NCBI GenBank assembly: GCA_030041155.1 | Contig: JASHOJ010000157.1 | Span: forward strand, 8,328-72,327 | DNA: 64,000 nt | Source: Candidatus Binataceae bacterium | GTDB lineage: Bacteria > Desulfobacterota > Binatia > Binatales > Binataceae | Direction: 5' to 3' | Part shown: one piece after another, positions 4,302-46,020 of the stretch | Layout of the letters: each line of letters starts with the position of its first letter | How positions within the stretch are numbered: position 1 is the first letter of the stretch | Notes under the pieces: model-generated | Seen by the model: only the letters and a program-made list of their open reading frames with translations | Told to the model about the DNA's origin: nothing | Databases searched by the model: none | Made by a program: the position numbers and the translations under genes

Positions 4302-4310
4302 TCAGAGACT

Positions 4311-5606: not shown

Positions 5607-5709
5607 CTAATGAGCACCGACTCGCCCGCTATGCCGGCGCATACTACCATTGCGCCGCCATCTCACCAGCCCGAACCGATTATAGCCAAGCCGCGGCGAA
5701 ACACCCCTA

Positions 5710-10426: not shown

Positions 10427-10427
10427 A

Positions 10428-13470: not shown

Positions 13471-13637
13471 GGATTGATTTCAGCACATCAGGCGCGGTTA
13501 ACAACGCCAAATCTGCGCTGGAAAAACACGATTTTACCGTGAAAGAAATTGCTCGTAAAAACCCTTGTCCCTGAGTGATCGAGAGCGGAGCGAATCTTGC
13601 TCATTCCTTCGCGTTGCTGGCTTTCCCGAGGCAAAAC

Positions 13638-14315
13638 ATGAGCAGATTGCCGGCCTTCCCCTGCCCCGCCCTATTTGACTCTCTCAGTCACTCATCAATA
13701 CTCGCGGCCCGCAAGAGCTTGTCTGCCCTGCTTTGTTTATGCGTAACCGCATGCGCCTCGCAATCGAACTATGAGAATCGCAGGTTCTTCAGGCGGAGCG
13801 CGAGTTTATCGAGGGCCAATTTGTTTCAGGTCGACGCGGTTCTGAAGATGCACGGCATCGATGACGAGGCGAAGCTCGGGCGGGTTCCTCCGCAGACGCT
13901 CGGGCGATGGCTCGGCGTCGATGCGGTCGTGTACGGCAAGGTTATCCACTACGAGGCCTTCTATGCGCTTCTAGTCTCCGGATGGATACTCGGCGCCGAT
14001 GTGACGATGGTCTCGACGCACAATGGCGAACAATTATTTTACGCAACCGGCGACCGTTACGATGTAGACTTCGCACCCGCGTTTGACACACTCGATATTG
14101 CGATTAACTCGTGCCTGACGCTCCTGGAGCTGCGCGATGTGGTGCTGGCGCGCAACGAAGAGGAAGACGCGCGCGAGATTGTTCTTGGAATTCCGCGATC
14201 GAAGCGGCTGGAGGCGCAACTTATCGAGGAAGCCACCCGCGGCGAGGTGCGCTTCACGGATGATTGGCCTGACAAAGATCAGGAACTCGCGCGCGGGATA
14301 CCGCAGGGAGAGTGA
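13638..14315 (+). CDS. putative lipoprotein (DUF799/GNA1162-like)
   Basis: ATG 13638. Lipobox LCVTACAS. The central region ...LGVDAVVYGKVIHYE... resembles DUF799 lipoproteins, but the family call is weak. Confidence 0.5.
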   Translation: MSRLPAFPCPALFDSLSHSSILAARKSLSALLCLCVTACASQSNYENRRFFRRSASLSRANLFQVDAVLKMHGIDDEAKLGRVPPQTLGRWLGVDAVVYGKVIHYEAFYALLVSGWILGADVTMVSTHNGEQLFYATGDRYDVDFAPAFDTLDIAINSCLTLLELRDVVLARNEEEDAREIVLGIPRSKRLEAQLIEEATRGEVRFTDDWPDKDQELARGIPQGE

Positions 14316-14439
14316 CAGCGCGCGACTCCGCCATCGGGCGGGAAATTATTACTCCGTTCGCAGCCGATCCATTCGCGCTCGCGTTGTTATTCGGATGATT
14401 ACGCCGATTTCTCCGACTTGTGCCGCACAAGTTTGGCTG

Positions 14440-14455
14440 TGGCATCCGACTTGCT
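14440..14455 (+). promoter_or_regulatory. candidate sigma-54 (-24/-12) promoter
   Basis: TGGCAT-CCGAC-TTGCT, a full match to TGGCAY-N5-TTGCW. GC lies 59 nt upstream of ATG 14513. Confidence 0.55.
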
Positions 14456-14512
14456 GACCTAATGCTGTCCCTTACAGCTTCTCAGCCAGGATTTCGGGGA
14501 AAGGATATAGGC

Positions 14513-15484
14513 ATGTCAGTTTTTGCGGACGGGGCGGCGCTCAATCGCGCGGCGATAATCCTTGCGGGCGGCGACGGCACGCGACTGCGCGAACTAACTC
14601 GCTTCATCATGGGACACGATGTCCCGAAACAGTTTTGTGCTGTAACCAGTGACGAAACCCTGCTCGAGGAGACGCGGCATCGCGTTGAGCGCCTGGTGTC
14701 CCCGAAGAGGACTGTCGTTGTCGTCAACCGGCAGCATCAGTCATTTTACCAACCACTGCTGCCCGATCTGCCGCACTCGCTGCTAATCGAGCAGCCGAGT
14801 AATCGCGGCACGGCGACCGCAATCCTGTTCGGACTTCGGCGACTCGCATTTCTGGGGCGCGACACCGTAGTGGCAATCTTCCCTTCCGATCACTTTGTCG
14901 GTGACGATGAACGCTTCATGAGCCACGTCAGCAATGCGATGGCGGCGGTCGAGGACGCGCCGGACATGGCTGTCATCCTGGGTATCCAGCCCGACTCGCC
15001 CGAGACTTCGTTCGGATGGATCGAGCCGAACACCCGGCTTTCAATCTCGCGTTATGGCGTGTTAGGCGTGCGCCGCTTCTGGGAAAAGCCTCGCCCGGAA
15101 CTTGCTCAGCGCCTGTGGCGCGACGGATGCCTGTGGAACAGTTTCGTGATCATCGCGCGAGCGCCGCGCCTGCATGCGATGCTGGCGGAATGCACCTCGA
15201 AGCTGTTCGTGACATTCAACGCAGCGTTCGCTTCCACCGGCGAACGCCCGGAAGCCGCTATCGTAGAGGATCTGTTCAAGCGTCTGCCGGTCGTTGGATT
15301 TTCCGAGGAAGTGTTGTCGCGATGCCCCGCGAATCTGGCGGTTGAACCGGTAGAGGATGTGCGATGGAACGACCTTGGCGAGCCGGATCGAGTATTGCAC
15401 ACGCTGCGGACTATCGGTCACGAGCCGCAGTGGGTGAAATCTTACGTATATGAATGGCCCAGGGCTTTACGCGCGAACGTCTAG
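14513..15484 (+). CDS. sugar-1-phosphate nucleotidyltransferase (ManC-like, no isomerase domain)
   Basis: ATG 14513 with AAGGA RBS. N-terminus AIILAGGDGTRLRELT....PKQF is the NTP-transferase G-x-G-x-R-L motif. Confidence 0.8.
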   Translation: MSVFADGAALNRAAIILAGGDGTRLRELTRFIMGHDVPKQFCAVTSDETLLEETRHRVERLVSPKRTVVVVNRQHQSFYQPLLPDLPHSLLIEQPSNRGTATAILFGLRRLAFLGRDTVVAIFPSDHFVGDDERFMSHVSNAMAAVEDAPDMAVILGIQPDSPETSFGWIEPNTRLSISRYGVLGVRRFWEKPRPELAQRLWRDGCLWNSFVIIARAPRLHAMLAECTSKLFVTFNAAFASTGERPEAAIVEDLFKRLPVVGFSEEVLSRCPANLAVEPVEDVRWNDLGEPDRVLHTLRTIGHEPQWVKSYVYEWPRALRANV

Positions 15485-15496
15485 GCCATAAAGCGT

Positions 15497-15506
15497 CCCC
15501 CCCCCC
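15497..15506. repeat. homopolymeric C10 tract
   Basis: Ten consecutive C between convergent gene ends. Confidence 0.9.
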
Positions 15507-15510
15507 GCAG

Positions 15511-15546
15511 AGGTCGCGCCGCTTAGCCCCGCTGGCGGCGCGGCCT
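15511..15546. terminator. GC-rich hairpin between convergent genes (possible bidirectional terminator)
   Basis: AGGTCGCGCCGC / GCGGCGCGGCCT forms a 12-bp stem (one G:U) with a 12-nt loop. No clear U-tract. Confidence 0.45.
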
Positions 15547-17294
15547 CACTTTTTCTGAATCGGAACCAAAATCGCGACTGTTTCCGCCGGCATGACGGCG
15601 TGTTTGCCTGAAAGCGCGACTCCGTCCGTCGAGCTCGCTGCGATTTGAAGGTTGTAAATGTCGCTAGCAATTTCTATCTGCTGCGTGGATTGGGCAAAGT
15701 TACAGGCCACGTAACATCCGCCGCGCCGCACACACAGGCATCGCGCGGTTTCATCGAAGCGGATCTCGCTGTCGCCGAGGTCGGGATCGGTGAAATCGGA
15801 ATAGCGGCGGCGCAGCTCGATCATCGTGCGATACCATTCAAGGATCTCGCGATGAGCGGGGTTGAGTCGTTCCGACCAATTGAGCTTCGATCTTCTGAAA
15901 GTCTCCGGCTCCTGCGGGTCTGGAACTTGTTGGGCGTCCTGCGCCAGATATGAAAATTCCTTGCGGCGGCCGGCGGTGACCGCGGCGCCGAGGCGCGGAT
16001 CTGAATGATTGGTGAAATAAAGGAACGGGCTCGAAGCGTTCCACTCCTCGCCCTGGAACAGGAGGGGAACGTATGGCGACGTGAGAAGCAGCGCGGCGGC
16101 AATTTTGAGCATCGCGGGGCTGATCATCATGCCCAGCCGGTCGCCTTGCGCGCGATTTCCAACCTGATCGTGGTTCTGCAGGCATGCGACAAAGCGATCT
16201 GCCGGAAGCCCGGCGGCGGAGCGGCCATGAAGGCGTCCTCTGAACCTGGAGTAACGCCCGTCGTAAACGTAAGGCTGCACGAGCGACGTCGCTATATCGG
16301 CAAGGGCGCCAAAATCCGTGTAATAGTGCGCGCGATCGCCGGTCAGGTATGCATGGATCGCGTGATGAAAATCATCGCTCCACTGTGCGTCGATGCCGTA
16401 GCCGCCCGCCTCTCGCGCGGTCACGATGCGCGGCTGATTCAGGTCGCTCTCGGCAATGAGGACGAGCCGCCGGCCGAGATGCGCTTCGAGCGCGTGTACT
16501 TCCGTGGCAAGCTGCTCGAGAAAATGGATCGCCGACGAATCAAAGATGGCGTGAACCGCATCGAGCCTGAGCGCATCGAAATGATAGTCGCGCAGCCACA
16601 TCAGTGCGTTGTCGCATAGAAATCGCCGAACCTCCGCGGCATCCTCACCATCCAGATTTATCGCGTCACCCCATGGAGTCTTGTAGCGATCGGTCGCGTA
16701 CGGCCCAAAGATGCCGGTGTAATTCCCGTCTGGACCGAAGTGGTTGTAAACGACATCCAGAACGGCGGCCATGCCGCGAATGTGGCACTGGTTGACGAAG
16801 TTTTTAAGTCCGATTGGCCCGCCGTACTCATGATGGGGCGCGAACAGATCGACCCCGTCGTAGCCCCATCCATGCGCTCCCGGAAACTCAGCCACCGGCA
16901 TCAGTTCCACATGCGTGACGCCGAGATCTTTCAAATAATCAAGTTTTTCTATTGCGGATTCGAACGTGCCTTTGGGAGTGAACGTGCCTATATGGCATTC
17001 ATAGACAAGGGCGGAGGAAAGCGGCGGCGCATTCCATCCCGAGTCATTCCATTCAAAACATGAGAGGTCGAGCGGGCGCGAAGCGCCGTGCACACCATGC
17101 GGCTGCCACGATGATCTCGGATCTGGCACTGGATCGCGGCCGTCGAGGCTGAATGAGTAGTCGGATTGCGAAAGCTCGGGCGGTATTTCGCACGCCCACC
17201 ACCCGCCGCCGTGCTCGCTCATCGGCAGGCGCGCATCTCCGATAACCACTGCCGCGGCTTCCGCGCGCGGCGCCCATACCCGGCGGATACTCAC
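15546..17294 (-). CDS. treZ: malto-oligosyltrehalose trehalohydrolase
   Basis: 582 aa. GH13 motifs DVVYNHFGP, ALRLDAVHAI, LIAESDLN and QNHDQVGNR. 4-nt overlap with treY. Confidence 0.9.
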   Translation of the reverse strand: MSIRRVWAPRAEAAAVVIGDARLPMSEHGGGWWACEIPPELSQSDYSFSLDGRDPVPDPRSSWQPHGVHGASRPLDLSCFEWNDSGWNAPPLSSALVYECHIGTFTPKGTFESAIEKLDYLKDLGVTHVELMPVAEFPGAHGWGYDGVDLFAPHHEYGGPIGLKNFVNQCHIRGMAAVLDVVYNHFGPDGNYTGIFGPYATDRYKTPWGDAINLDGEDAAEVRRFLCDNALMWLRDYHFDALRLDAVHAIFDSSAIHFLEQLATEVHALEAHLGRRLVLIAESDLNQPRIVTAREAGGYGIDAQWSDDFHHAIHAYLTGDRAHYYTDFGALADIATSLVQPYVYDGRYSRFRGRLHGRSAAGLPADRFVACLQNHDQVGNRAQGDRLGMMISPAMLKIAAALLLTSPYVPLLFQGEEWNASSPFLYFTNHSDPRLGAAVTAGRRKEFSYLAQDAQQVPDPQEPETFRRSKLNWSERLNPAHREILEWYRTMIELRRRYSDFTDPDLGDSEIRFDETARCLCVRRGGCYVACNFAQSTQQIEIASDIYNLQIAASSTDGVALSGKHAVMPAETVAILVPIQKK

Positions 17295-19945
17295 GCCGCG
17301 GCGCCATCGCGCGCAACTAAAGCCACCGGAAACCGCGCGAACAGATCCGCGACGCGCGCATCCGCGGAAATTTCTTCATCGGTCAGACGATTGATCCATC
17401 TGCCCGGCGGCAGCCGCACCGAAGTATCCTGATAATCGCCTCCACTCCCCATCACGAGCCGCGGCATCACGGCCGCAACCCGTTCACCGCGCATAAAAGC
17501 CACTACATTGCCGGATTTGGGGCCGACCACCTCAATCGGCGTGAATGCCGCACCGGGTGTGAAACAATCGCTAAAGGACTTGCGCAGTTCGAGGCCGCGC
17601 TTGATAAGCCACATCTTTGGCGCTCCGGTATCGCCGCGCGCCATCACTTTTTCAGGTTCCAGGCTGTCAAGGCTTTGAAGCAGCTTGCGCCGCCGCTCAA
17701 AATCAACCGGCCTGCGATTGTCGGGATCTACCAGGGTGAGATTCCATAATTCGCAGCCCTGGTAAAAGTCCGGCACCCCGCAGGCGGTGATCTTGAGAAG
17801 CGTCATCGAAAGTGAGTTGATGCGCCCGGGTTCGACCAGCGACTGGGCAAATTCGCGAAGCGAGAACATAAATTCTTCGCTGTCGAACAGCGCGTTGATA
17901 TAGGAGTTGAGCGCGTCTTCGTATTGCTGATTCGGGTCAGTCCAAGTGGTGTAGACCTTGGCCTCGCGCACCAGCTTGCGCGCGTATTCGAGCATCCGCT
18001 CGCGTTCGATCGGCCACGCTCCGACCATGGTCTGATAGATATGGTATTCGGTGTTGCGATCGGGCATCGTACCAGTGCGCCACGGCTCGTTCATCGCGGA
18101 CCATTTCTGCACCGCGGCGCCCCACCTTTCGGGAATCTCTGACAGCAGGTAAAGCCGCGCGCGAACGTCCTCGCCGCGCTTGCTGTCATGGGTCGAGGTG
18201 CCGGCCATGGTGCGCGGCCATCGTGAATTCATCCGGCGGCACCATTCGTAAAAACATCGCGGCTCGATTCCGAACTGGTCGGGATTTCCGCCCACTTCGT
18301 TGAGCGCGATCAGGCGGTTGAACGTGTAGAAGGCCGTATCTTCAACGCCCTTCGCCATAACCGCGGCCGAGACCTGCTGAAACCGCATCGCCAGCTCCCG
18401 CGCAAGATCTCCGGCAACGTCTCGAACCAGGATGTCGCGCAGGAAGTCGAACAGCCGCTGGTCCAGATCCAAACGGTACGCCTTGGCATCCTCAATAGCT
18501 GACTCGATTTGCCGCCGATCCTCGGTCGAACGATCGCCGTTATCGCGGACATAAGTTCGGTAAACCTTGAAGCAGGCAAGCGCGGCGCGCAGCACCTCGT
18601 GACACTCGTGGCGCGTATAGTCGCGATGCAGCCGGTGATTCTCGCATACCGCGAGGAACAAGCCAGTCAGGCGGTTTACGTCGCTGCCGAGCGACTCGCG
18701 CATCGCTAGCTGCTTCTTGGCTTTTAGATAGGTCTGGAAATCGACCGATTCACCGGTGAAACCACGGTAAAGCTCGGTCATCGGCTCGGCGCCGGCGGGA
18801 TCGACAAACAAACCGCCCGCCATGTTCATGAAATCGTAGCCGGTGGTGCCATCGATCGGCCAGTTTTCGCGAATCGCCTCGCCGGTGCTAAGAATTTTTT
18901 CGGCAACAATCCACGCATCGGGGCACGCCTCTCGCAGTCGCTCGAAATACTCCAGCGGATCGCGCAGCCCGTCTGGATGATCGACGCGCAGGCCGGTGAC
19001 TTCACCGGTGGCGACCAGCTTGAGCGTCCTCGTATGAGTGGCGCGGAAGACAGTCGGGTCCTCCATCCTGAGCCCGACCAGAGAGTTGATATCGAAGAAG
19101 CGGCGGTAGCCGACATCGCGCGCCGCCATCCTCCAGTACGCGAGCCGGTAATTCTGTCGCTCCAGGAACTGATGCAAGCGGTCGGAATCGGAATTGAGCG
19201 CGGCCAGCACTCGATCGATTTCGGCGGCCAGATCCGGATTTTCCCCGATCAGCCGCTCCAGCCATCCGTACAGGACTTTCTTGTCGCGCTGGCGGCGAAC
19301 AATACTTCCTGCGTCGGTAACCGCGGGCGATGGCAGCTCGCTAAGTGCATCGGCCAGCGCGGCCAACTCTTCGTTGTGCGCCGCCGACGCGGCGGTGTTG
19401 AGGATTTCGTACAGCGACCGCGGCGCGACCGGAAATGATCGATCCTCGTAGCGGACCACGAAATCGGGCCCCTTCCGCACCACCGTAAACTTGTGGCTCT
19501 CGAGCAGCACCCCATACTGATCGGCAAGGACCGGCAAAAGGACAGTGTTATGGAGGCGGCGCTCCGGCGGTTCCCAATCGACATCGAAAAAGGCCGCGAA
19601 CGGGCTCGAAGGTCCGTTTTCCAGCACGTCCCACCACCATGGGTTTTCGCGGCCGGTTATCGCCATGTGATTGGGGACCACATCCAGTAGCTGACCCATC
19701 GAATGTTTTTTCAACGCCGCGACGAGTTTGGCGTACCCGCGTTCGCCACCCCACTCCTCGTTCATTCTCGAATGATCGGTCACGTCGTAGCCGTGAGTGC
19801 TGCCGGGCGCCGCCTGTGAGCATTGCGGACAATACAGGCAATCGATTCCGAGCGCCGCGAGATATGGAATGAGCTTCGCGGTCGCGGCGAAGTCGCAATC
19901 CGGATTTATCTGGACCCGATAGGTTGCGGTCGGTTCAAAGCGCAC
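17291..19945 (-). CDS. treY: malto-oligosyltrehalose synthase
   Basis: 884 aa. N-terminus ATYRVQ...YL..LGIDCLY.....A.PGSTHGYDVTDH and GLRVDHPDGL. Confidence 0.9.
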   Translation of the reverse strand: MRFEPTATYRVQINPDCDFAATAKLIPYLAALGIDCLYCPQCSQAAPGSTHGYDVTDHSRMNEEWGGERGYAKLVAALKKHSMGQLLDVVPNHMAITGRENPWWWDVLENGPSSPFAAFFDVDWEPPERRLHNTVLLPVLADQYGVLLESHKFTVVRKGPDFVVRYEDRSFPVAPRSLYEILNTAASAAHNEELAALADALSELPSPAVTDAGSIVRRQRDKKVLYGWLERLIGENPDLAAEIDRVLAALNSDSDRLHQFLERQNYRLAYWRMAARDVGYRRFFDINSLVGLRMEDPTVFRATHTRTLKLVATGEVTGLRVDHPDGLRDPLEYFERLREACPDAWIVAEKILSTGEAIRENWPIDGTTGYDFMNMAGGLFVDPAGAEPMTELYRGFTGESVDFQTYLKAKKQLAMRESLGSDVNRLTGLFLAVCENHRLHRDYTRHECHEVLRAALACFKVYRTYVRDNGDRSTEDRRQIESAIEDAKAYRLDLDQRLFDFLRDILVRDVAGDLARELAMRFQQVSAAVMAKGVEDTAFYTFNRLIALNEVGGNPDQFGIEPRCFYEWCRRMNSRWPRTMAGTSTHDSKRGEDVRARLYLLSEIPERWGAAVQKWSAMNEPWRTGTMPDRNTEYHIYQTMVGAWPIERERMLEYARKLVREAKVYTTWTDPNQQYEDALNSYINALFDSEEFMFSLREFAQSLVEPGRINSLSMTLLKITACGVPDFYQGCELWNLTLVDPDNRRPVDFERRRKLLQSLDSLEPEKVMARGDTGAPKMWLIKRGLELRKSFSDCFTPGAAFTPIEVVGPKSGNVVAFMRGERVAAVMPRLVMGSGGDYQDTSVRLPPGRWINRLTDEEISADARVADLFARFPVALVARDGAAA

Positions 19946-22067
19946 GGCACATCACGATTAGCGATCGAGGATTTACCTCAATCTTATCGCCCGCGTTGAC
20001 CGGACGCCCGGGTTTAACGGGTGGCCTACCGGACGTGTCCATCTCTTTTCTCCATCGCTTGCCCCATTTGTCGGAAGGCAGGACGAACTCAAGCGGCTCG
20101 TGGCCCGCGTGAAACATCAGGTAGAACGAGTCGTCGCGGACCTTGCGTCCATACTCATCCGAGCCCGCTATTTCGCCGTTATAGAACACCGCGAGCGACT
20201 TGGCATTGCCGTCGTTCCAGTCCACATCCGACATTTCGTTGCCATCCGGCCGAAACCATCCGATATCGCCGTTGACGGAGCCGCGAATCGCGCGCCCCTG
20301 AAGCCATCTGCGGCGCCGGAATACCGGATGCGCGCGGCTGAACGACGACATCCAGCGGCAAAACGCGAGCTGATCGCGATCGACGTGCTCCCAGTCAAGC
20401 CACGAAAGCTCATTATCCTGGCAATAGGTGTTGTTGTTGCCGGATTTGGTCTGTCCGATCTCATCGCCCGCGCGCAGCATCGGCACCCCCAGGGACAGGA
20501 ACAGAGTCGCGACAAAGTTGCGCATCTGGCGTTTGCGCAGGGCGTTTATCGCGGGATCGTCGGTTGGACCTTCCACGCCGCAGTTCCATGACCGATTATC
20601 CGAGGATCCGTCGCGATTATCTTCGCCGTTGGCCTCGTTGTGCCGATCGTTGTAGCTGACCAGATCTCTTAGCGTAAACCCGTCATGCGCGGTGATAAAG
20701 TTGATGCTCGCGTAAGGCCGCCGTCCGCCGCTTTCGTACAGATCCGAGCTGCCGGTAAGGCGCATTCCCAGTTCACTCAGGCTGCGATCCGCGCCGCGCC
20801 AATAATCGCGCAGACAATCGCGATATTTCCCGTTCCATTCCGACCACAACACGGGAAAGTTGCCGACCTGATATCCGCCGTCACCCAGATCCCACGGCTC
20901 GGCGATCAGCTTGACCTGCGAGAGAGTCGGATCCTGATGGATGATATCGAAGAACGCCCCCAGACGGTCAACCTCGTGCAGTTCGCGAGCCAGCGCCGAC
21001 GCCAAATCAAATCGGAATCCGTCAATATGGTATTCGATTACCCAATAGCGCAAGCTATCCATGATTAGCTGCAGCGACCGCGGATGACGCATGTTCAGCG
21101 TGTTTCCGCATCCGGTGTAATCGACGTAATAGCGCGGATTATCCTCGGCCGTGCGGTAGTACGCGAGATTGTCTATCCCCCTGAAGCATAGGGTGGGTCC
21201 GAGATGATTTCCCTCGGCGGTATGGTTGTAGACCACGTCGAGTATTACTTCGAGACCCTCGCGATGCAGCGCGCGGACCATCCCCTTGAATTCCGCCACC
21301 TGATCGCCAGCCGAGCCGACCGAAGAGAATCGGCTATCGGGCGCAAAGTATCCAATCGAGTTGTATCCCCAATAATTGGTCAGACCGCGATCGAGTAGCT
21401 GCCGGTCGGAAACCGAATGATGGATCGGCATCAATTCCACCGCCGTCACGCCGAGCGACTTGATGTACTCGATAGCGGAGGGCTGCGCGAGGCCGGCATA
21501 AGTTCCGCGCAGTTCCTCTGGTATTCCGCGATTTCTCGCGGTGAATCCCTTGACGTGGAGTTCGTAAATCACCGTCCGATGCCACGGAATTCGTAGCAGC
21601 GTGTCGCCGTGCCAGTCGAAATATGGGTCCGCGACAACGCTTTTGGGGACAAACGGCGCGCTATCGCGATCGTCACGGCTTAAGTCCTCGTCCTCGTTTC
21701 CGATCGTATAGCCGAACACCGCGTTGTCCCATCGCACTGCGCCGTCAATCGCCTTGGCGTAGGGATCGAGCAGCAGTTTTGCGGGATTGAAACGGTGTCC
21801 TTTGGCCGGATCGTAGTCGCCCTGAACCCTATAGCCGTAACGCAGGCCCGGCTTGGCGCGCGGCAGGTAGACATGCCAGACCAGGTCGGTCCGCTCTTCC
21901 AGCGCGATTCGCTCTGTCTGCTGATCAGGCTTTGAAGGATCTTCGAACAGGCACAACTCGACGCCGGTCGCGTTCTCGCTGAAGAGCGAGAAATTGACGC
22001 CCGCACCGTCCCAAATCGCGCCCTGAGGATACGGCGTTCCTGGCGTGATGCGCCGTGATTCGCTCAT
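19935..22067 (-). CDS. glgX: glycogen debranching enzyme GlgX/TreX
   Basis: 710 aa. VILDVVYNHTAEG, GFRFDLASAL, LIAEPWDLG and FITAHDGFTLRDLVSYN. Overlaps the treY start by 11 nt. Confidence 0.9.
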   Translation of the reverse strand: MSESRRITPGTPYPQGAIWDGAGVNFSLFSENATGVELCLFEDPSKPDQQTERIALEERTDLVWHVYLPRAKPGLRYGYRVQGDYDPAKGHRFNPAKLLLDPYAKAIDGAVRWDNAVFGYTIGNEDEDLSRDDRDSAPFVPKSVVADPYFDWHGDTLLRIPWHRTVIYELHVKGFTARNRGIPEELRGTYAGLAQPSAIEYIKSLGVTAVELMPIHHSVSDRQLLDRGLTNYWGYNSIGYFAPDSRFSSVGSAGDQVAEFKGMVRALHREGLEVILDVVYNHTAEGNHLGPTLCFRGIDNLAYYRTAEDNPRYYVDYTGCGNTLNMRHPRSLQLIMDSLRYWVIEYHIDGFRFDLASALARELHEVDRLGAFFDIIHQDPTLSQVKLIAEPWDLGDGGYQVGNFPVLWSEWNGKYRDCLRDYWRGADRSLSELGMRLTGSSDLYESGGRRPYASINFITAHDGFTLRDLVSYNDRHNEANGEDNRDGSSDNRSWNCGVEGPTDDPAINALRKRQMRNFVATLFLSLGVPMLRAGDEIGQTKSGNNNTYCQDNELSWLDWEHVDRDQLAFCRWMSSFSRAHPVFRRRRWLQGRAIRGSVNGDIGWFRPDGNEMSDVDWNDGNAKSLAVFYNGEIAGSDEYGRKVRDDSFYLMFHAGHEPLEFVLPSDKWGKRWRKEMDTSGRPPVKPGRPVNAGDKIEVNPRSLIVMCRAL

Positions 22068-22222
22068 TGTCGTATGCGTCCATGTGACTGGCCGTCGCCA
22101 CCATTTTGAGATGAGTCGCGCCTAAATCCGGCGTGAAACACGATTCGGCAAGCGCCGCTCCTCAGTGGGCTCGTCCGGAACGGTTCTTCCGGGTTGCGAC
22201 GGACAGAAACGCATTCAAGAAG

Positions 22223-22238
22223 ACGCAATTTCGAGGCC
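22223..22238 (-). promoter_or_regulatory. candidate sigma-54 (-24/-12) promoter
   Basis: The minus strand reads TGGCCT-CGAAA-TTGCG with exact spacing. It lies about 157 nt upstream of the glgX/treX ATG (22067). TGGCC rather than TGGCA. Confidence 0.4.
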
Positions 22239-22260
22239 ATGCACCGGTCGGATGCCTGCC

Positions 22261-22512
22261 TTATAGGTGCTGGCGAGAATTGAATACCCCTGCGGAAAGC
22301 AGAAATGCGCCAGCAATTATGGTTCCGGCGCTTATCGGAATTGGTATCGATCTGATGCTCTCGCGCTCGGACGGAACAGACATTGGACCGAGCTTCGCCA
22401 CGTGCGTGCTATCGTGTGTTACGAACGCGGGCGTCACCAAGCTTAGCACTCCAAGAACTATAAGAACCGCGCCGATTAGCGCGATGATCTTCACCGTCCC
22501 GGCCGCCGACAA
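22261..22512 (-). CDS. small membrane protein (83 aa, two hydrophobic helices)
   Basis: IIALIGAVLIVLGVLSLV and ISAGTIIAGAFLLSAGV. Last gene of the stress operon. Confidence 0.45.
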   Translation of the reverse strand: MSAAGTVKIIALIGAVLIVLGVLSLVTPAFVTHDSTHVAKLGPMSVPSERESIRSIPIPISAGTIIAGAFLLSAGVFNSRQHL

Positions 22513-22569
22513 CCCGGTCTTACAGCGCGCCGCTCGTGCGATGGCAGATAACTGGACCTCGGCGCGTAC

Positions 22570-22968
22570 TCACGCGGGATCGTTCTGCGGTGACGGCCGT
22601 TGCTGATACCCGGCCTGAGACGCACTTTTTCGATGGGTCGCGACCCAGCCAAGAATCGCGCCGACGATCACCGCGAGCAATCCGCTAAGCGCAAGCGACA
22701 GCCACCACGCAATCCAGATGTGCAGCAGAACGATCAATGCGCCGAACAGAAATACTCCGCCGGTGCTCAGCGCCGTTATCCCGAGCAGACTCGCCACCAG
22801 CCGGTCGGTCAATTCGGTAAACAGGAGCCCGAGCGCGTTCTCGAAGATACGCATCTCGGCCTTGCCAATCTCGGCCACGTCGTCGACCAGGCGCTCGGCC
22901 AGCGTCGTCCAATTGTTGTCCCCATCATGCGCAAGCGGATGATCCTGGCGCGATCTTTCAGTGTTCAT
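22570..22968 (-). CDS. holin-X / YqjE-like (DUF1469) membrane protein
   Basis: 132 aa. An amphipathic N-terminus is followed by two TM helices (LLGITALSTGGVFLFGALIVLL, WWLSLALSGLLAVIVGAILGW). Position after DUF883-type genes as in yqjD-yqjE loci. Confidence 0.55.
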   Translation of the reverse strand: MNTERSRQDHPLAHDGDNNWTTLAERLVDDVAEIGKAEMRIFENALGLLFTELTDRLVASLLGITALSTGGVFLFGALIVLLHIWIAWWLSLALSGLLAVIVGAILGWVATHRKSASQAGYQQRPSPQNDPA

Positions 22969-23254
22969 GCTCCAAGCTCTCGTCGTCCGCGGTCAGCATC
23001 CTTTTCCGAACCGCGCCCGACATCCCGCCGATCATTGCGCCCAGAATTATGAAGCGGCGATCCAGCATTCCGATCATAAAACCGGTCGCGCACGCGACAC
23101 AGATCGACGTGCCTAGATGACGTTTCAGCATCCGCTCCGGCGACAGGCGATTCTGAACCCTCTCGACTTTATTGTTGACCGCCTCGAGGGTTTCGTGGAG
23201 CCGCTCTTTAGCCGCTTCCAGATGCTGCTCCAGCTCGGCGCTCTCGTCTTCCAT
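22958..23254 (-). CDS. coiled-coil plus C-terminal TM protein (YqjD/DUF883-like architecture)
   Basis: 98 aa. Charged helical N-terminus (ELEQHLEAAKERLHETLEAVNNKVERV), then a TM segment. Overlaps the upstream ORF by 47 nt, so the start is uncertain. Confidence 0.45.
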   Translation of the reverse strand: MEDESAELEQHLEAAKERLHETLEAVNNKVERVQNRLSPERMLKRHLGTSICVACATGFMIGMLDRRFIILGAMIGGMSGAVRKRMLTADDESLEHEH

Positions 23255-23477
23255 CTCCGTTACCTTCGCTCAGGGCTTCGCGAATCAACTCGGGCATCGC
23301 GAGACGGATCGAGTAGATGAGCATGGTCCGCCCAATCCACGTATGCAGTCCGCCACCGACGAAAAATCCGGCGCCACACGCGATAGTCATCGACGTAAGC
23401 GGACGCTTCCTGATCCGCCGCGTAATCGCGGCCACTCCATATTCCGCCTCGGCTTGAGAATACGGCGACGCGGCCAT
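23208..23477 (-). CDS. small membrane protein (89 aa)
   Basis: RKRPLTSMTIACGAGFFVGGGL resembles the DUF883 C-terminal anchor. The tail overlaps the next ORF. Confidence 0.4.
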   Translation of the reverse strand: MAASPYSQAEAEYGVAAITRRIRKRPLTSMTIACGAGFFVGGGLHTWIGRTMLIYSIRLAMPELIREALSEGNGDGRRERRAGAASGSG

Positions 23478-23493
23478 CAGACTTTTCCTGTCT

Positions 23494-23748
23494 CTACGAT
23501 GAGAGCCGACGCAGCAGATGCGCCGCTATGTATCCGACCAGAAACGCGCCCGCCACCGCTATCAGCGGATCGCGCTTGACGAAGCTGGTCAACGTCTCGC
23601 TCAGTTCGCTCGCATACTCGAGCGACCTGTCACCATACTCGCGCACCGTGTCGTAGCTGTCCTCCATCATCCGACGGCCTCTGCGCCGAGCTTCGTGGAG
23701 AGCGTCACTCGCGGCGTTCCTTGCACCTTCCAAAGACTCATTGTCCAT
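23494..23748 (-). CDS. DUF883 (YqjD/ElaB-like) membrane-anchored stress protein
   Basis: ATG 23748 with AGAGG 8 nt upstream (TTG 23793 is less likely). C-terminus KRDPLIAVAGAFLVGYIAAHLLRR is the family-typical anchor. Confidence 0.65.
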   Translation of the reverse strand: MDNESLEGARNAASDALHEARRRGRRMMEDSYDTVREYGDRSLEYASELSETLTSFVKRDPLIAVAGAFLVGYIAAHLLRRLSS

Positions 23749-23816
23749 TTGACGAACCTCTGCTCTGAGAGATGACGTCACGGCAGGCAACAACCGCCCT
23801 GACGATACGAAAATCG

Positions 23817-23832
23817 AGCAAATCTGTTGCCA
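23817..23832 (-). promoter_or_regulatory. candidate sigma-54 (-24/-12) promoter
   Basis: The minus strand reads TGGCAA-CAGAT-TTGCT with exact spacing. GC lies 70 nt upstream of ATG 23748. Divergent from the sigma-54 activator gene. Confidence 0.6.
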
Positions 23833-24045
23833 CTTAACTATCCAAGTATGAATTGATGAAGTGCGCAGGCGGACGCGGACCGTGAAAAAATGTGAGGACG
23901 TGAACCTGCGAGCGGTCCCGAAATTCGGCTCGCTGCTTGCCCCGACGCCAACCGCAATTCCTGATTTTCGACTCCCTCGTTGTCGGACTCATACAGCGCC
24001 TCGGTTCGGCCGACCATAGCTGAAAGACTCACAGTTCCGGTAAAA

Positions 24046-24060
24046 TTTACATAATGTAAA
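24046..24060. promoter_or_regulatory. perfect 15-bp palindrome TTTACATAATGTAAA in an AT-rich divergent control region
   Basis: Read directly. It lies about 215 bp from the -24 element at 23832 and about 200 bp from ATG 24263. Confidence 0.35.
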
Positions 24061-24262
24061 CGAAATGAGGTATTTGACGAAATTCAGCTCGTGGCAGCCA
24101 TAGTTTCAGCTGTAAAATGCGCCTATCGCGGCTGCAAGATTGGTGATGTATTTTATTCAAAGTCGGTAAAAATTATAGGAGATTGCACTCAGAACGCGCG
24201 TAATCATCAGGATCTATATGGTACGATAATTGTTCATCTGACTGCGGAAGGATAGGCCTTAG

Positions 24263-25624
24263 ATGCCTCATCAGACGAGAATTCTGGTAGCGGAGGACGA
24301 CGTCTCGACACATGAATCCTGGCGCGAATCCCTCAATTCGTGGGGATATAAAGTCGATGTCGCCGAAGACGGCGTCCACGCTCTTGAGATAATCAAGACT
24401 TTCCAGCCCGATTTGCTGCTCGCGGATCTGAAGATGCCGCGCAAGAACGGTCTTGAGCTTCTGCGCGAGATCCGCGACATGGGCCTCAAGCTCTCGACGA
24501 TTGTCATTTCGGGCGAAGGCGATATCCCGGAAGCGGTTGAGGCGATCAAGCTCGGCGCGATCGATTACTTGCGCAAGCCCGTTGATCCGCCGCATCTGCG
24601 CCAGATGCTCCGGACACTGGCCGACAGTATCGAAATGCGCGAGGAGAACCTGACGCTGCGGCGACGGCTGGCCGAGGTCGGCGAATTAGGCCCGCTTTAC
24701 GGCCGCTCGCCCGCGATGCGCAAGGTGATAACCGCGATCGAGCGAGTCGCGCAATCGGCGGCCTCGGTGGTGATTTCGGGCGAAAGCGGAACCGGCAAAG
24801 AGTTGGTCGCTCGAACCATTCACGAGATGTCGCCGCGGCGCAATGCCGCTTACGTCGGCCTCAACTGCGCCGCTATTCCTGAAACGCTGATGGAGAGCGA
24901 GCTATTCGGGCATGAGCGCGGAGCGTTCACCGGCGCCGACAAGCGCCGCGAAGGATGCTTCGAAACCGCCAACGGTGGAACCCTGCTGCTCGACGAAATC
25001 ACCGAGATGAAGCCGGAGTTGCAGGCCAAGCTTCTGCGCGTGATCGAAGAGCAGCGGCTGCGCCGGGTGGGCGGAACCGCCGAAATCACCCTCGATGTTC
25101 GGGTGCTGGCCGCTTCCAATCGCGACATCGAACAGGCAGTGCGCGATGGCAAGCTGCGCGAGGATCTTTTCTATCGACTGAACGTCTTCTCTATAATGCT
25201 CCCGCCACTTCGCGAGCGCGGCGACGACCTGCCGCTGCTGGTCGATTCGTTTGTTCAGCATTATTCCGAGCGCAACAACAAACACGTAGTAGGCGTTGAT
25301 GAGGAATGCCTTGCCGCACTGCGGGCTCATCCGTGGCCCGGCAACGTGCGCCAGTTGCGCAACGTGATCGAACGCGCACTTATCGTGTGCGACGGCAAGA
25401 TGATCGGCAGACACGACCTGCCCGAGGAATTCCGCTCCGCCGCTCAGGGCGAAGCCGGTTACTTCAAGATAAGGCTCGGAACTTCGCTCGATGACGTGGA
25501 GCGCGAAGTCATTTCGCGCACCATCGAATTCACCGGCGGAAACAAGACCCGCGCCGCGCAAGTGCTCGGAGTGAGCGCCAAAACCCTCTATAACAAGCTT
25601 GATCGCTATCAGCAGGAAGGCTGA
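24263..25624 (+). CDS. sigma-54-dependent response regulator (NtrC family), no adjacent kinase
   Basis: 453 aa. Receiver domain (LLLADLKMP), AAA+ domain with GESGTGKE and GAFTGA, C-terminal Fis-type HTH (NKTRAAQVLGVSAKTLYNKL). Confidence 0.9.
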   Translation: MPHQTRILVAEDDVSTHESWRESLNSWGYKVDVAEDGVHALEIIKTFQPDLLLADLKMPRKNGLELLREIRDMGLKLSTIVISGEGDIPEAVEAIKLGAIDYLRKPVDPPHLRQMLRTLADSIEMREENLTLRRRLAEVGELGPLYGRSPAMRKVITAIERVAQSAASVVISGESGTGKELVARTIHEMSPRRNAAYVGLNCAAIPETLMESELFGHERGAFTGADKRREGCFETANGGTLLLDEITEMKPELQAKLLRVIEEQRLRRVGGTAEITLDVRVLAASNRDIEQAVRDGKLREDLFYRLNVFSIMLPPLRERGDDLPLLVDSFVQHYSERNNKHVVGVDEECLAALRAHPWPGNVRQLRNVIERALIVCDGKMIGRHDLPEEFRSAAQGEAGYFKIRLGTSLDDVEREVISRTIEFTGGNKTRAAQVLGVSAKTLYNKLDRYQQEG

Positions 25625-25768
25625 GACGAGTAAAGCTGACGCGCGAAGCGCATGCTCCTCCAGTAGAGCCCTGACCCTTTTCACGCTAACCCGCTCGCAA
25701 GGCGCTGGAAAAATATACTCACGTAACGGCGTTCCCCTGAGTTTCCGATACGCCAGAAAAATCACTGA

Positions 25769-25784
25769 TGGCCTCTCTCTTGCT
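25769..25784 (+). promoter_or_regulatory. candidate sigma-54 (-24/-12) promoter
   Basis: TGGCCT-CTCTC-TTGCT with exact spacing. GC lies 49 nt upstream of the csbD ATG 25832. Confidence 0.5.
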
Positions 25785-25831
25785 GCGATTACTGGCAGTG
25801 GAGGGTGCATTTTTCTCGAGGAGAATTAGTG

Positions 25832-26023
25832 ATGAACAGCGATATCATGAAAGGAAAACTCAAGCAGCTCTCGGGCGAAATCAAGCGCAAATGGGGCCAG
25901 GTAACTGACGATGATCTCACTGAGTCACAGGGTGACTTTGACAAGCTGGTCGGAAGAATCCAGCAACGCTCCGGTGAGAGACGCGAGGCGATCGAGAAAT
26001 GGCTCCACTCTGAAGGCATGTAA
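25832..26023 (+). CDS. csbD: CsbD family stress protein
   Basis: ATG 25832 after GGAG. KGKLKQLSGEIKRKWGQVTDDDL...GDFDKLVGRIQQRSG is the CsbD repeat signature. Confidence 0.8.
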   Translation: MNSDIMKGKLKQLSGEIKRKWGQVTDDDLTESQGDFDKLVGRIQQRSGERREAIEKWLHSEGM

Positions 26024-26085
26024 TCAGCCCGATCTGTGACGAAAACTCCCACTCTGGTAATACCTCTTCCTTACGACTGCGCTTT

Positions 26086-26106
26086 CCGGCAGCATCCTGC
26101 TGCCGG
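26086..26106 (+). terminator. hairpin downstream of csbD
   Basis: CCGGCAGCA-TCC-TGCTGCCGG, a perfect 9-bp stem with no U-tract. Confidence 0.3.
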
Positions 26107-26300
26107 GATGCGCCAGTCACTACTTTTCGGTTCCGTTCTGGTAGGCGAGGCCTTCGATCTCGCCGGACATAAAACCGCTTTCCTACATCATTACGCGAAA
26201 TCTCCGTTGAACCGGAGCAAACGGTTGTGCACGATCTGATTCTTATGATCGTGCGCTTCGCTACCGAATTACCTGCTCCTGCCCTACCGGTGTTTCCAGT

Positions 26301-27128
26301 GTGAGCCCGGCTGCGCCATTTGGACTCGCCGCGCTGGGCCTGTTGCTGGGAATGCGCCACGCGACTGATCCGGATCATGTTATCGCGGTAACAACTATTC
26401 TGAGCCGAGAGCGGCGCATCGCGGCCGCGATGCGTGTCGGTGTCATCTGGGGACTGGGTCATACCGCGACCGTGATGCTGGTCGGTGCGGCGATAATCAT
26501 CTTTAAGATCGCAATCCCCGCCCGAATCGGGCTTGCGATGGAATTTGCTGTCGCGCTGGTGCTGATTCTGCTCGGCGTGAACGCCGCGTCACGGATGCTC
26601 GCGCGTGCAACGTCGCGCTTTTCGGAGCCGGAGGCAGTGCCCGCCACGCTTTCGGTCCATAGTCATGCGCACAGTCACGGCGCTTTCACGCATACTCATC
26701 CGCACGCGCATCCTGGGTATCTTCACGAACCCATGATCGTACACGATGCGGATCACCTCATCCACGCGGCGAAGCACGATCCCGATCAGATGCGCCGGCC
26801 GCTGCTCAAGTCGTTCGGCGTCGGACTGGTGCATGGACTAGCCGGCAGCGCCGCGATCGCGCTGCTGGTCCTGAGCGCGATTCCCGAACCAATGTGGGCG
26901 ACTGTGTATCTGGTAGTGTTCTGCATCGGCGTGATCATCGGGATGGGGTTGATCACGAGCGCGATCGCGGCGCCTTTTATGTTCGCATCGCGCAAAATCG
27001 CGTGGCTGCATCAGGGATTCGTCACCGGATCGGGTCTGCTGAGCTTCGCATTCGGATTGTTTCTCGCTTATCACATTGGGTTCGTGGATGGGCTGTTCCG
27101 TTCGGTGCCGATTTGGATTCCGCACTGA
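26301..27128 (+). CDS. Ni/Co-type metal transporter with His-rich loop (NiCoT/UreH-like)
   Basis: GTG start, 275 aa. RHATDPDH resembles the NiCoT HAxDADH signature. Loop is HSHAHSHGAFTHTHPHAHPGYLH. About 6 TM helices. Confidence 0.6.
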   Translation: MSPAAPFGLAALGLLLGMRHATDPDHVIAVTTILSRERRIAAAMRVGVIWGLGHTATVMLVGAAIIIFKIAIPARIGLAMEFAVALVLILLGVNAASRMLARATSRFSEPEAVPATLSVHSHAHSHGAFTHTHPHAHPGYLHEPMIVHDADHLIHAAKHDPDQMRRPLLKSFGVGLVHGLAGSAAIALLVLSAIPEPMWATVYLVVFCIGVIIGMGLITSAIAAPFMFASRKIAWLHQGFVTGSGLLSFAFGLFLAYHIGFVDGLFRSVPIWIPH

Positions 27129-37646: not shown

Positions 37647-38765
37647 TTGAACCTTTGGCGCGACATCATCGATTCATTGCCGGACGCGATTATCGTCCTA
37701 TCCGGTAAATTTGCACCCCTTGCGATAAATCCCGCTGCCGAAACGATGCTTGCGGCCTCGACAATCGGCACGTCCCAGGTCTCCGACCTGCTGGAGCATA
37801 ATCCCTGGCTCGAACGAATGGTGCGTACGTGCCTTGAGACGGGCCAAAGCGTCGGCGACCCCGATACCGTCCTAGCGGTGTCTTCGAGGTCGGTTGCAGT
37901 GCGAGCGGAAGTGTCGGCTTTGTTGGAGGATAACGGTTCGCCCACCGGCGCAATTGTCCTGCTTCAGGATCTCTCCCATCAGAAGAGCGCCGCCAGCGCC
38001 AGCGACTCCAGCTCTTCGGGGCTGCGGCTGTCGCCGGCTGGTCTTGCGCATGAGGTGAAAAACCCGCTCACCGGCATCAAGGGGGCGGCTGAGCTGCTGG
38101 CCGCGATGTATCCCGACCAGACACGAGCGCAGCAGTACTGCGGCGTTATCCTGGACGGAGTCAATCGAATCGCGGCGCTGGTCGAGCAAGTGCTTGCGGC
38201 AAGCTCGCCGCAGCGGTTGGCCCGGGAATCGGTCAACATTCATCAGGTGCTGCATCAGGCGCTCAGGATGGCCGGGCTTTACCCGACGCCGCGCCAAGGC
38301 CTGCGCATCGATCAGGATTTCGACCCCAGCTTACCCGCCATAATGGGAGATTCGGCAGCTCTGGAGCGCGCTTTTCTGAACCTGATCAAGAACGCCCACG
38401 AAGCTATTGGGCAGACCGGCGCAATCCGCCTTGCTACAAGGATGGAAACCGAGTTCCGCATGACTGCCGAAGGGCGCCGCCGCCAATTCCTGCGGGTTGA
38501 TATCTGCGACAGCGGGATCGGGCTTTCGCCGGATGCGCTGGCACAGCTTTTCACGCCTTTTTTTACCACCAAGCCGTCGGGAACTGGCCTTGGACTTGTG
38601 CTCAGCCAGCGTATCATCGCGCTGCACGGCGGCCGACTATGGGCCGAGCGAGGCGGAATCGGAAGGCCGGACGACGCCGAGCAACTGCCCGCCGGGATGA
38701 CTTTCAAGGTAACCTTACCTATAGAGACTCAGGGTGACTCGCCCGCCGCGAGTCCCTACTGTTAA
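37647..38765 (+). CDS. PAS-domain sensor histidine kinase (NtrB-like, cytoplasmic)
   Basis: TTG start. H-box LAHEVKNPLTGI, N-box LIKNAHEA, G-boxes DSGIGL and GTGLGL. No TM segments. Confidence 0.85.
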   Translation: MNLWRDIIDSLPDAIIVLSGKFAPLAINPAAETMLAASTIGTSQVSDLLEHNPWLERMVRTCLETGQSVGDPDTVLAVSSRSVAVRAEVSALLEDNGSPTGAIVLLQDLSHQKSAASASDSSSSGLRLSPAGLAHEVKNPLTGIKGAAELLAAMYPDQTRAQQYCGVILDGVNRIAALVEQVLAASSPQRLARESVNIHQVLHQALRMAGLYPTPRQGLRIDQDFDPSLPAIMGDSAALERAFLNLIKNAHEAIGQTGAIRLATRMETEFRMTAEGRRRQFLRVDICDSGIGLSPDALAQLFTPFFTTKPSGTGLGLVLSQRIIALHGGRLWAERGGIGRPDDAEQLPAGMTFKVTLPIETQGDSPAASPYC

Positions 38766-38774
38766 ATACTCGCG

Positions 38775-41081: not shown

Positions 41082-41230
41082 GTGCAAAGGCGAATATCGA
41101 GGCGACGATCAGCTGCTGAATTGACTTCTGTCACGGCGCTTTATCTTCTCGCCTCGTTCCTCATATTCGCGCGCAAGCTTATGGGCGCGCACCAGCCGCT
41201 GCAAATCGGCCACGGTTCCGATCCGTCTCA
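41082..41230 (+). pseudogene. 5' remnant of a fourth copy of the tandem membrane-protein gene
   Basis: ...LTSVTALYLLASFLIFARKLMGAHQPLQIGHGSDPS matches residues about 10-48 of the paralogs. Homology stops at GATCCGTCTCA (41220..41230). The conserved intergenic leader (GCATAGGCAGGAGCATCA) then follows. Confidence 0.6.
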
Positions 41231-41291
41231 GTGCAAGAATTTGCCCACAGTTCCTCTCCCATTTATCGCATAGGCAGGAGCATCACCCTCA

Positions 41292-43640: not shown

Positions 43641-43688
43641 AATGCAGTTTTTCTCCGATTTGTTGCGTAGGCAGGAGCATCAAATCCA

Positions 43689-45980: not shown

Positions 45981-46020
45981 GGCGGAACAAAAAAATCGCT
46001 AGCGGCAAGAGTTCAATCTA

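Follow-up and report, generated by a model that had tools for sequence, protein, structure and literature searches.

A 64-kb stretch of DNA (∼60% G+C) from a Candidatus Binataceae bacterium, referred to here as the window, contains the gene of an NtrC-family enhancer-binding protein (EBP). The closest relatives of the window proteins are proteins from metagenome-assembled genomes (MAGs) labeled Candidatus Binataceae or Binatus, phylum Binatota. The activator gene lies between csbD and an operon of small membrane proteins on the opposite strand, and each of these is preceded by a match to a sigma-54 (-24/-12) promoter. A sequence-only reading of this DNA had described the arrangement and proposed that general-stress genes are placed here under the control of sigma-54 and an orphan activator. 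The genes and promoter matches are listed below; all promoter bit scores refer to a position weight matrix (PWM) that we built as an approximation of the published consensus.

24263..25624, plus strand: activator, NtrC-family EBP of 453 residues, receiver-AAA+(GAFTGA)-HTH_8 (Pfam and motifs)
25832..26023, plus strand: csbD, 63 residues (PF05532)
25769..25784, plus strand: sigma-54 -24/-12 match TGGCCTCTCTCTTGCT of csbD, exact pattern, 12.0 bits
23832..23817, minus strand: sigma-54 -24/-12 match TGGCAACAGATTTGCT of the small-membrane-protein operon, exact pattern, 16.0 bits, the best in the window
23494..23748, minus strand: sm1, C-tail-anchored protein of 84 residues with a DUF883_C-like (YqjD/ElaB-type) tail anchor (hhalign)
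23208..23477, minus strand: sm2, 89 residues, glycine-zipper segment (weak DUF883_C match, E 0.053)
22958..23254, minus strand: sm3, 98 residues, coiled coil and membrane segment, overlapping sm2 by 47 nt (list of open reading frames, ORFs)
22570..22968, minus strand: sm4, YqjE-like membrane protein of 132 residues (PF07332, "Holin-X"; sub-threshold Pfam match)
22261..22512, minus strand: sm5, two-helix membrane protein of ∼77–83 residues; the start is uncertain, GTG at 22494 being likely (ORF list)

The activator has the Pfam domains Response_reg (the receiver, PF00072, 97.7 bits), Sigma54_activat (the AAA+ sigma-54 interaction domain, PF00158, 235 bits), AAA_lid_14, and HTH_8 (the C-terminal Fis-type helix-turn-helix, PF02954, 53.4 bits, residues 409–449). 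The Walker A (GESGTGKE at 173), GAFTGA (220–225), and Walker B (LLLDEI at 241) motifs are intact, and comparison by eye with NtrC finds the receiver residues E11-D12-D13, D55, S83, and K105 present. The protein is a complete and apparently phosphorylation-controlled EBP. Its nearest relatives of solved structure are Aquifex NtrC1/NtrC4 (4L4U, 1NY5, and 3DZD; E 2e-99 to 7e-84 over the full length) and ZraR. Because NtrC1 and NtrC4 are closest, the likeliest mode of control is that the receiver holds the ATPase off until it is phosphorylated. The two proteins of Aquifex aeolicus share the three-domain plan; their targets and signals are different or unknown, and the similarity is uninformative on the regulon. 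The activator falls under the cut-off of every named NCBIfam EBP equivalog (AtoC, PrsR, NtrC, ZraR, FlbD, LuxO, NtrX, GlrR, and others), with 443 bits against 714 for AtoC and 409 against 559 for NtrC. It is not a ZraR, given a score of 398 bits against a cut-off of 760, and identity with the PEP-CTERM regulator PrsR was ruled out at 414 bits against 503. Downstream, the csbD product matches PF05532 with 55.2 bits (cut-off 40) over profile positions 1–53 of 53; its 55 bits against NCBIfam PRK10428 (YjbJ type, cut-off 113) indicate a family-level resemblance only.

The first gene of the operon had been called DUF883/YqjD-like. The sm1 protein of the window gave no Pfam hit, and a word-indexed homologue search returned only sm1 itself; an exhaustive HMMER search yielded 57 representative homologues. 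When a 47-sequence sm1 profile was compared with Escherichia coli YqjD in hhalign, a probability of 94.3% (E 9.9e-8) was obtained for the C-terminal 31 residues only, which form the proline/glycine-zipper tail anchor. The tail-anchor model DUF883_C (PF19029) gives 22–24 bits, under its cut-off of 27, in the sm1 homologues of two related loci (L085 and L172) and is matched at E up to 1e-3 by 4 of the 47 homologues. The N-terminal DUF883 domain (PF05957) has no match in sm1 and is matched by 1 of the 47 (E 5e-4). Judged by these comparisons, sm1 is not a demonstrable DUF883 member, and the tail anchor alone resembles YqjD, a protein that in E. coli has both DUF883 and DUF883_C. The earlier label therefore applies to the C terminus and not to the N-terminal domain.

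The remaining small proteins have homologues in the same related loci. The sm2 homologue of L085 reaches 27.7 bits for DUF883_C (cut-off 27), and another is present in L081; sm3 homologues occur in L081 and L085, the latter with a weak DUF883_C match. Homologues of sm5 are found in L081 and, by eye, in L085 (4027..4254), where the gene has its own sigma-54 match of 15.5 bits. For sm4, designated Holin-X/YqjE-like, PF07332 (the family of E. coli YqjE) is on record in the homologues of L081, L085, and L172; the window protein itself remains at 23 bits (E 8.6e-5), under the cut-off of 28.4. Comparison of sm4 with E. coli YqjE was negative both by BLASTP and by hhalign of a 3-sequence profile, and the putative connection comes from the Pfam model alone. 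In the window, L081, L085, and L172, an sm1 gene and a yqjE-like (PF07332) gene share the same operon, and a 2024 preprint describes yqjE-like genes beside DUF883 genes as archetypal (bioRxiv 10.1101/2024.08.16.608256). The tail anchor, the PF07332 homologues, and this synteny make "YqjD/YqjE-like operon" a fair name for the architecture.

Placement and conservation of the promoter matches

The two flanking matches were confirmed in sequence, position, and strand. TGGCAACAGATTTGCT ends 68 nt upstream of the sm1 ATG (23748), which has the Shine-Dalgarno sequence AGAGG, and TGGCCTCTCTCTTGCT ends 47 nt upstream of the csbD ATG (25832), which has GAGGAG. In both, GG and GC are exactly 10 nt apart, and the match is upstream of and co-oriented with its gene; the predicted transcription starts would lie near 23806 (minus strand) and 25795 (plus strand). 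A simple sigma-70 scan found no match before csbD or the operon and matches upstream of the activator gene only.

The three exact TGGC-N7-TTGCW matches of the window are all intergenic and aimed at a gene 47–68 nt away. The third, TGGCATCCGACTTGCT (14440..14455, plus strand), lies 57 nt before an NTP_transferase gene (14513..15484). With the PWM, 3 matches of at least 15 bits were obtained against 0.3 in shuffled sequence. Intergenic positions 20–150 nt ahead of a gene on the same strand make up 2.5% of all strand-positions, and they hold four of the five matches of at least 12 bits (binomial P = 1.8e-6). The gene map underlying this test was hand-curated, and its only influential choice, that of the ORF 228..728 (plus strand) over an overlapping minus-strand ORF, is backed by homologues in L001, L094, and L172.

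That ORF encodes a protein of 166 residues with no Pfam family and the motif L-x-A-V-L-E-D-A-[IV]-R-C-Y, and the sigma-54 match TGGCATAAAGCCTGCT (164..179, plus strand, 15.2 bits) lies 48 nt before it. The three homologous genes adjoin the orthologous activator (L001, ∼7538..7891, minus strand; L094, ∼5237..5731, minus strand; L172, 7400..7858, plus strand), each with its own sigma-54 match. The ORF is probably another member of the same regulon.

Conservation was assessed in 170-odd loci around EBP genes, namely ∼20 distinct orthologous loci and ∼150 background loci around more distant EBPs; several of them are MAG or metagenome contigs of uncertain completeness. The orthologous group of the activator is large, with 58%–87% identity, and comes from soil metagenomes and Binatia MAGs. 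The approach is validated by textbook sigma-54 targets: beside distant EBPs, the same pipeline recovered type IV pilin genes in 7 loci and flgB in 3.

A PWM match of at least 11.9 bits lies 46–63 nt upstream of the start of each csbD homologue found in these loci. The nine csbD loci are the window, L089, L091/92, L093, L096, L003, L136, and L174, of which eight are independent, L091/92 being a near-duplicate pair. The rate at which such a match arises by chance, estimated from shuffles, is ∼0.007 per 250 nt per strand. In close relatives, the csbD promoter reads TGGCCTC-N4-TTTGCT (also upstream of csbD in L089, L091/92, and L093), whereas orthologues of 58%–59% identity have the canonical CGGCAC-N5-TTGCT. 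Since the close and distant sequences differ and both are of the sigma-54 type, the type of promoter appears to have been kept through sequence turnover and through changes of gene order and strand. The 16-mer that follows the stop codon of the activator is near-invariant in the window, L085, L088, and L089, where the aligned flanks are ∼40% identical; in L088 it precedes a BON gene rather than csbD.

The sm1-type gene is likewise preceded by a sigma-54 match in 4 of 4 loci (window, L081, L085, and L172). Around the orthologues, promoters of this type also precede BON, DUF1328, DUF3309, and DUF6496 genes. BON/OsmY-type genes are the commonest neighbors of the orthologous activator (L085, L088, L089, and L172–174). 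The gene order is activator-csbD-BON-glgX-treY-treZ in L089, activator-kinase-270 aa-csbD-BON in L174, and otsA-otsB-transporter-activator-small proteins-BON on the P0050 contig. In L085, 13.4 kb hold 12 PWM matches that reach 11 bits or more, and the majority precede BON, DUF6496, DUF1328, and DUF3309 genes and the small-membrane-protein operon. The same locus carries YflT, Ku, and LigD genes; among the Ku, LigD, YflT, DUF6496, and DUF3309 genes, a direct sigma-54 match is present only before the last two types, and the match nearest to Ku is ∼460 nt away.

Other elements, the kinase, and the trehalose island

The intergenic regions around the activator gene contain further candidate elements.

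24219..24234, plus strand: sigma-54-like element TGGTACGATAATTGTT, 28 nt before the activator ATG, PWM 11.6
23877..23892, plus strand: candidate upstream element GGACCGTGAAAAAATG, ∼60 nt upstream of the operon -24 element, its putative function deduced from sequence
25678..25685 and 25701..25716, plus strand: candidate upstream elements TTTTCACG and GGCGCTGGAAAAATAT of the csbD promoter, weaker than the operon-side copy

TGGTACGATAATTGTT is probably an autoregulated promoter. It aligns with GGYACG-N4-TTGC in L081, L088, L085, and L090, and this alignment of a sigma-54-type element across five loci makes positive autoregulation likely in the activator family. In the window copy, a T replaces the nearly invariant C at -12, so that GC reads GT; autoregulation may be weakened in this genome, the same one in which the activator has no adjacent kinase.

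Of 24 promoter-upstream regions in orthologous loci, 9 contain the 8-mer CGTGAAAA/TTTTCACG, against 0.34 expected for a given 8-mer, and the best 8-mer in shuffles reached 6; two pairs of these regions overlap, which leaves ∼7 independent occurrences. Six of 29 promoters in orthologous loci have it upstream, compared with 1 of 85 in non-orthologous loci. Four copies are present in the 64-kb window, two of them flanking the activator (23881 and 25678), and the GGACCGTGAAAAAATG site is conserved between the window and L081. A Gibbs sampler returned the motif GRAnCGTGAAAAAAWT (11.5 bits against 8.5–8.7 in shuffles), and most of its sites, in one orientation or the other, precede the -24 element by 57–71 nt. 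The T-tract-CACG element, also written CGTGAAAAA or CGTGAAAAAA, may be a binding site of the activator, or a site of intrinsic bending or of a co-factor. A search for shared perfect inverted or direct 4–5-mers with gaps of 0–15 nt in 22 promoter-upstream regions found none above shuffles, and a repeat search on three intergenic regions gave nothing relevant. The perfect 15-bp palindrome TTTACATAATGTAAA (24044..24058), which sits in the AT-rich spacer (44% G+C) upstream of the activator, was rejected as an operator, as it is not conserved in the orthologous loci. An Rfam search of 21500..27000 found no RNA family. In L085, TACGTTGATT occurs in two copies 17 nt apart (12950..13060), one within the sigma-54 match TGGTACGTTGATTGCT before the DUF3309 gene and the other just upstream beside TTTTCACG; the arrangement looks as if a local duplication had taken in part of the promoter.

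The absence of a partner kinase near the activator, as the sequence-only reading had noted, holds for the window: among the ORFs checked, no HisKA/HATPase kinase lies between the window start and 37647, and the 430-bp spacer has no trace of a kinase gene. In seven orthologous loci, however, a kinase gene is adjacent. A HAMP-HisKA-HATPase kinase of 580–600 residues directly follows the activator in L172 (9502..11247), L173 (9440..11248), L174 (9405..11210), L128, L094, and L098. In L081, the closest relative (87%), a kinase gene (3593..5321) lies between the small-membrane-protein operon and the activator and is split over two reading frames, by either a frameshift or a long-read error. A tblastn search of the window with the orthologue-linked kinase found only an unrelated gene (37662..38639, 25%–28% identity). 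Because of the seven loci with an adjacent kinase, a cognate kinase elsewhere in the genome is likely. By this comparison, the activator comes from a two-component family of the ordinary kind, with its kinase gene unlinked in the window genome, and "orphan" describes the gene order of this genome and is not evidence for a kinase-independent mechanism.

More distant parts of the window contain the following features.

15546..22239, minus strand: glgX-treY-treZ, trehalose synthesis, directly downstream of the operon (Pfam)
22224..22239, minus strand: weak element TGGCCTCGAAATTGCG between the last small ORF and glgX, PWM 8.85
37647..38765, plus strand: PAS-HisKA-HATPase kinase, paired with a second EBP
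38775..40280, plus strand: second complete EBP (receiver-AAA+-HTH_8), forming an NtrB/NtrC-like pair with the kinase

Judged by its domain composition, the second kinase-EBP pair shows the use of sigma-54 in more than one circuit of the genome. The activator sits at the edge of a trehalose/alpha-glucan island (8496..22067), which encodes a sugar-binding protein, DUF5752, TreT, a GH15 glucoamylase/trehalase-like enzyme, a GNA1162-like lipoprotein, the NTP_transferase, treZ, treY, and glgX. TGGCCTCGAAATTGCG shares the TGGCCTC -24 half with the csbD promoter and is a possible internal promoter for glgX-treY-treZ; it is also possible that these genes belong to the same transcription unit as the operon. 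In the orthologous loci, trehalose genes occur as TreYZ (window, L089, and L096, near csbD), as TreT (window and L081, the latter with DUF5752 and a sugar ABC transporter beside the activator), and as OtsAB (P0050 contig). At the border of the trehalose cluster, the gene at 14513..15484 (plus strand) codes for an NTP_transferase resembling mannose-1-phosphate guanylyltransferase. In L088, a homologue with 51% identity immediately precedes the activator and has no promoter match. Elsewhere in the window, three tandem ORFs (41292..48255, plus strand) encode paralogous membrane proteins of 744–782 residues with near-identical N termini (…SLLIFGRGLL…QLGH.SDP…), preceded by a 63-residue fragment of the same kind at 41082..41273.

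The proposed regulon and its alternatives

We consider it probable that the locus is the core of a sigma-54-dependent protective regulon, of the osmotic, desiccation, or stationary-phase type, in Binatia. Adjacency and conservation point to the activator as acting on these promoters and to their requirement for sigma-54. The proposal of a receiver-controlled sigma-54 activator flanked by -24/-12 promoters for csbD and a YqjD/YqjE-like operon is thus supported by conservation and not by motif matches alone.

In the mechanism envisaged, an unlinked sensor kinase would phosphorylate the activator receiver at D55, in response to a signal that, from the genes present, may be low water activity, osmotic stress, or starvation. 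By analogy with NtrC1/NtrC4, phosphorylation would release the AAA+ domain and lead to ring assembly. The ring, bound upstream, would use its GAFTGA loops and ATP hydrolysis to open the closed complexes of sigma-54 RNA polymerase at both flanking promoters; the activator's own promoter would probably be opened likewise. The plus-strand promoter would drive csbD, and the minus-strand promoter the C-tail-anchored and YqjE-like small membrane proteins, with possible read-through into glgX-treY-treZ.

Several observations weigh against this reading. The csbD promoter is a weak fit to the general consensus (CCT instead of CAC after GG; 12.0 bits), and the PWM behind every bit score is an approximation. 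The total of exact TGGC-N7-TTGCW matches is not significant by count, with 3 in the window against 1.17 expected and at least 3 in 9 of 100 shuffles. PWM scoring against shuffled sequence, a check proposed with the sequence-only reading, gave a divided result: the number of matches of at least 12 bits is not above chance (5 against 3.8 in shuffles), whereas their upstream placement is. The 22 promoter-upstream regions share no dyad-symmetric site of the classical upstream activating sequence (UAS) kind. The score of 20.9 for GGACCGTGAAAAAATG with an upstream-element PWM is circular, 12 of the 16 positives being training sites, and is therefore not counted as support. An RpoN-box search of the window and all 170-odd loci found no rpoN; the presence of sigma-54 is deduced from the two intact EBPs and the conserved promoters. 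L082 (85% identity) and L090 (75%) have no flanking match of at least 12 bits, and the linkage of activator and promoter is therefore common but not universal. Finally, the genome has at least one further EBP, and adjacency is no proof of which activator is used.

A narrower interpretation is that the regulon serves a specific osmotic or desiccation (compatible-solute) response, with trehalose synthesis as its main job and a few osmoprotective envelope proteins attached. The trehalose island of the window, with TreT, DUF5752, GH15, and glgX-treY-treZ, would fit such a role, as would the gene order of L089, the OtsA/OtsB genes beside the activator on the P0050 contig, and the prevalence of BON/OsmY-type neighbors. 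The trehalose genes have no strong -24/-12 match, however (best 8.85 bits), and the Ku, LigD, YflT, DUF6496, and DUF3309 genes of L085 stand for non-osmotic functions. The osmotic and general-stress readings overlap and are not separable from sequence; we regard the strictly osmotic one as rather unlikely.

It is more doubtful still that the sigma-54 promoters are genuine but are activated by a different EBP, either the second one in the window or one encoded elsewhere, with the adjacent activator serving other targets or only itself. The complete second EBP with its own kinase (37647..40280), the missing common dyad UAS, and the two orthologues without flanking promoters would all be compatible with this. 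In most of the distinct loci examined, however, csbD, a BON gene, or the small-membrane-protein operon lies 0.1–3 kb from the orthologous activator, at 58%–87% identity and in several gene orders, and conserved proximity of this kind is the usual signature of a regulator-target pair. Enrichment of the candidate upstream 8-mer in orthologous loci only also argues for the adjacent activator. That both matches arose by chance in AT-rich intergenic DNA, with promoters of the sigma-70 or another type and csbD expressed by read-through from the activator gene, is very improbable: the count of exact matches is within chance and the stretch from the activator gene to csbD has no predicted terminator, but the placement (P = 1.8e-6), a match at the right distance in 9 of 9 csbD loci (8 independent) and in 4 of 4 sm1 loci at a chance rate of ∼0.007, and the 16-mer kept amid diverged flanks all contradict it.

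Relation to known stress systems

As a mechanism, the proposed protective regulon would be a standard NtrC-class sigma-54 system, and its layout is closest to those of ZraSR-zraP and PspF-psp. In E. coli and Salmonella, ZraR is likewise a receiver-AAA+-HTH_8 activator, one of the closest solved relatives; it activates the gene of a small envelope stress protein from a divergent sigma-54 promoter, as well as its own operon, a layout that resembles the window. In contrast to the window, the ZraS gene adjoins that of ZraR; the system responds to zinc and acts on ZraP, not on a protein of the CsbD, DUF883_C, or YqjE type. PspF is also a sigma-54 activator, whose gene diverges from an operon (pspABCDE) for small stress proteins associated with the membrane, but it has no receiver, is controlled by binding of PspA, and acts on unrelated target families; PspF models remain under their cut-offs for the activator.

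The targets resemble those of a different kind of system. The E. coli RpoS core regulon includes yjbJ (CsbD family), osmY (BON), elaB/yqjD/ygaM (DUF883), yqjE, ytjA (DUF1328), and otsBA (trehalose); the same protein families are targets or neighbors here. The sigma-S promoters of E. coli are of the sigma-70 family and need no enhancer or ATPase, whereas those at the locus are of the -24/-12 type, which cannot open without an AAA+ activator. CsbD-, YflT-, and Ku/LigD-type members also belong to the sigma-B regulon (csbD and yflT of Bacillus subtilis) and to the EcfG/PhyR system of Alphaproteobacteria. Both of these act by partner-switching control of a dedicated sigma factor, in contrast to the two-component EBP and sigma-54 proposed here. 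To our knowledge, CsbD, BON/OsmY, YqjD-type, YqjE, and DUF1328 proteins and trehalose synthesis are tied to a dedicated stress sigma factor in every model studied. RpoS controls YqjD, ElaB, and YgaM, which are C-tail-anchored and inactivate ribosomes; yqjE-like genes are found in synteny with theirs (bioRxiv 10.1101/2024.08.16.608256; PMC6389858).

The nearest precedent is the Rrp2-RpoN-RpoS cascade of Borrelia burgdorferi, where a receiver-type EBP and sigma-54 stand atop a stress and adaptation regulon (PMC1976401). There the control is indirect, from sigma-54 through rpoS to the regulon, whereas here the stress genes themselves carry -24/-12 promoters. A literature search, with most subscription journals outside its scope, found no report of csbD or DUF883 genes under sigma-54/rpoN, of sigma-54 wiring of this kind with trehalose, desiccation, osmY, or general stress, or of transcriptional regulation in Binatota. 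The novelty lies in the targets: in an uncultured phylum, a familiar switch is joined to a set that is new, coherent, and conserved.

Within general stress regulons, few families are as conserved, or as poorly understood, as those concerned here. The locus would be a case in which a control of another mechanism, with a tight off-state, ATP-driven opening, and two-component input, has recruited the same protective genes. The module is compact, consisting of one activator, two to three promoters, and a candidate upstream element, and could be reconstituted in E. coli for an organism that cannot be cultivated. It also provides a sequence signature for reading the drought and starvation responses of Binatia in soil metatranscriptomes.

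A wider view is put forward only tentatively. In Binatia, and perhaps in neighboring soil lineages, the general stress or anhydrobiosis response might be run by sigma-54 and one dedicated NtrC-type two-component system and not by sigma-S, sigma-B, or EcfG. The direct regulon would then extend, with the same reserve, to CsbD, BON/OsmY, DUF883-type tail-anchored ribosome silencers, YqjE, DUF1328, YflT, and trehalose synthesis, possibly also to Ku/LigD. If true, bacteria would have a fourth way of organizing the general stress response, with an all-or-none ATP-dependent switch, because sigma-54 promoters are silent without their activator.

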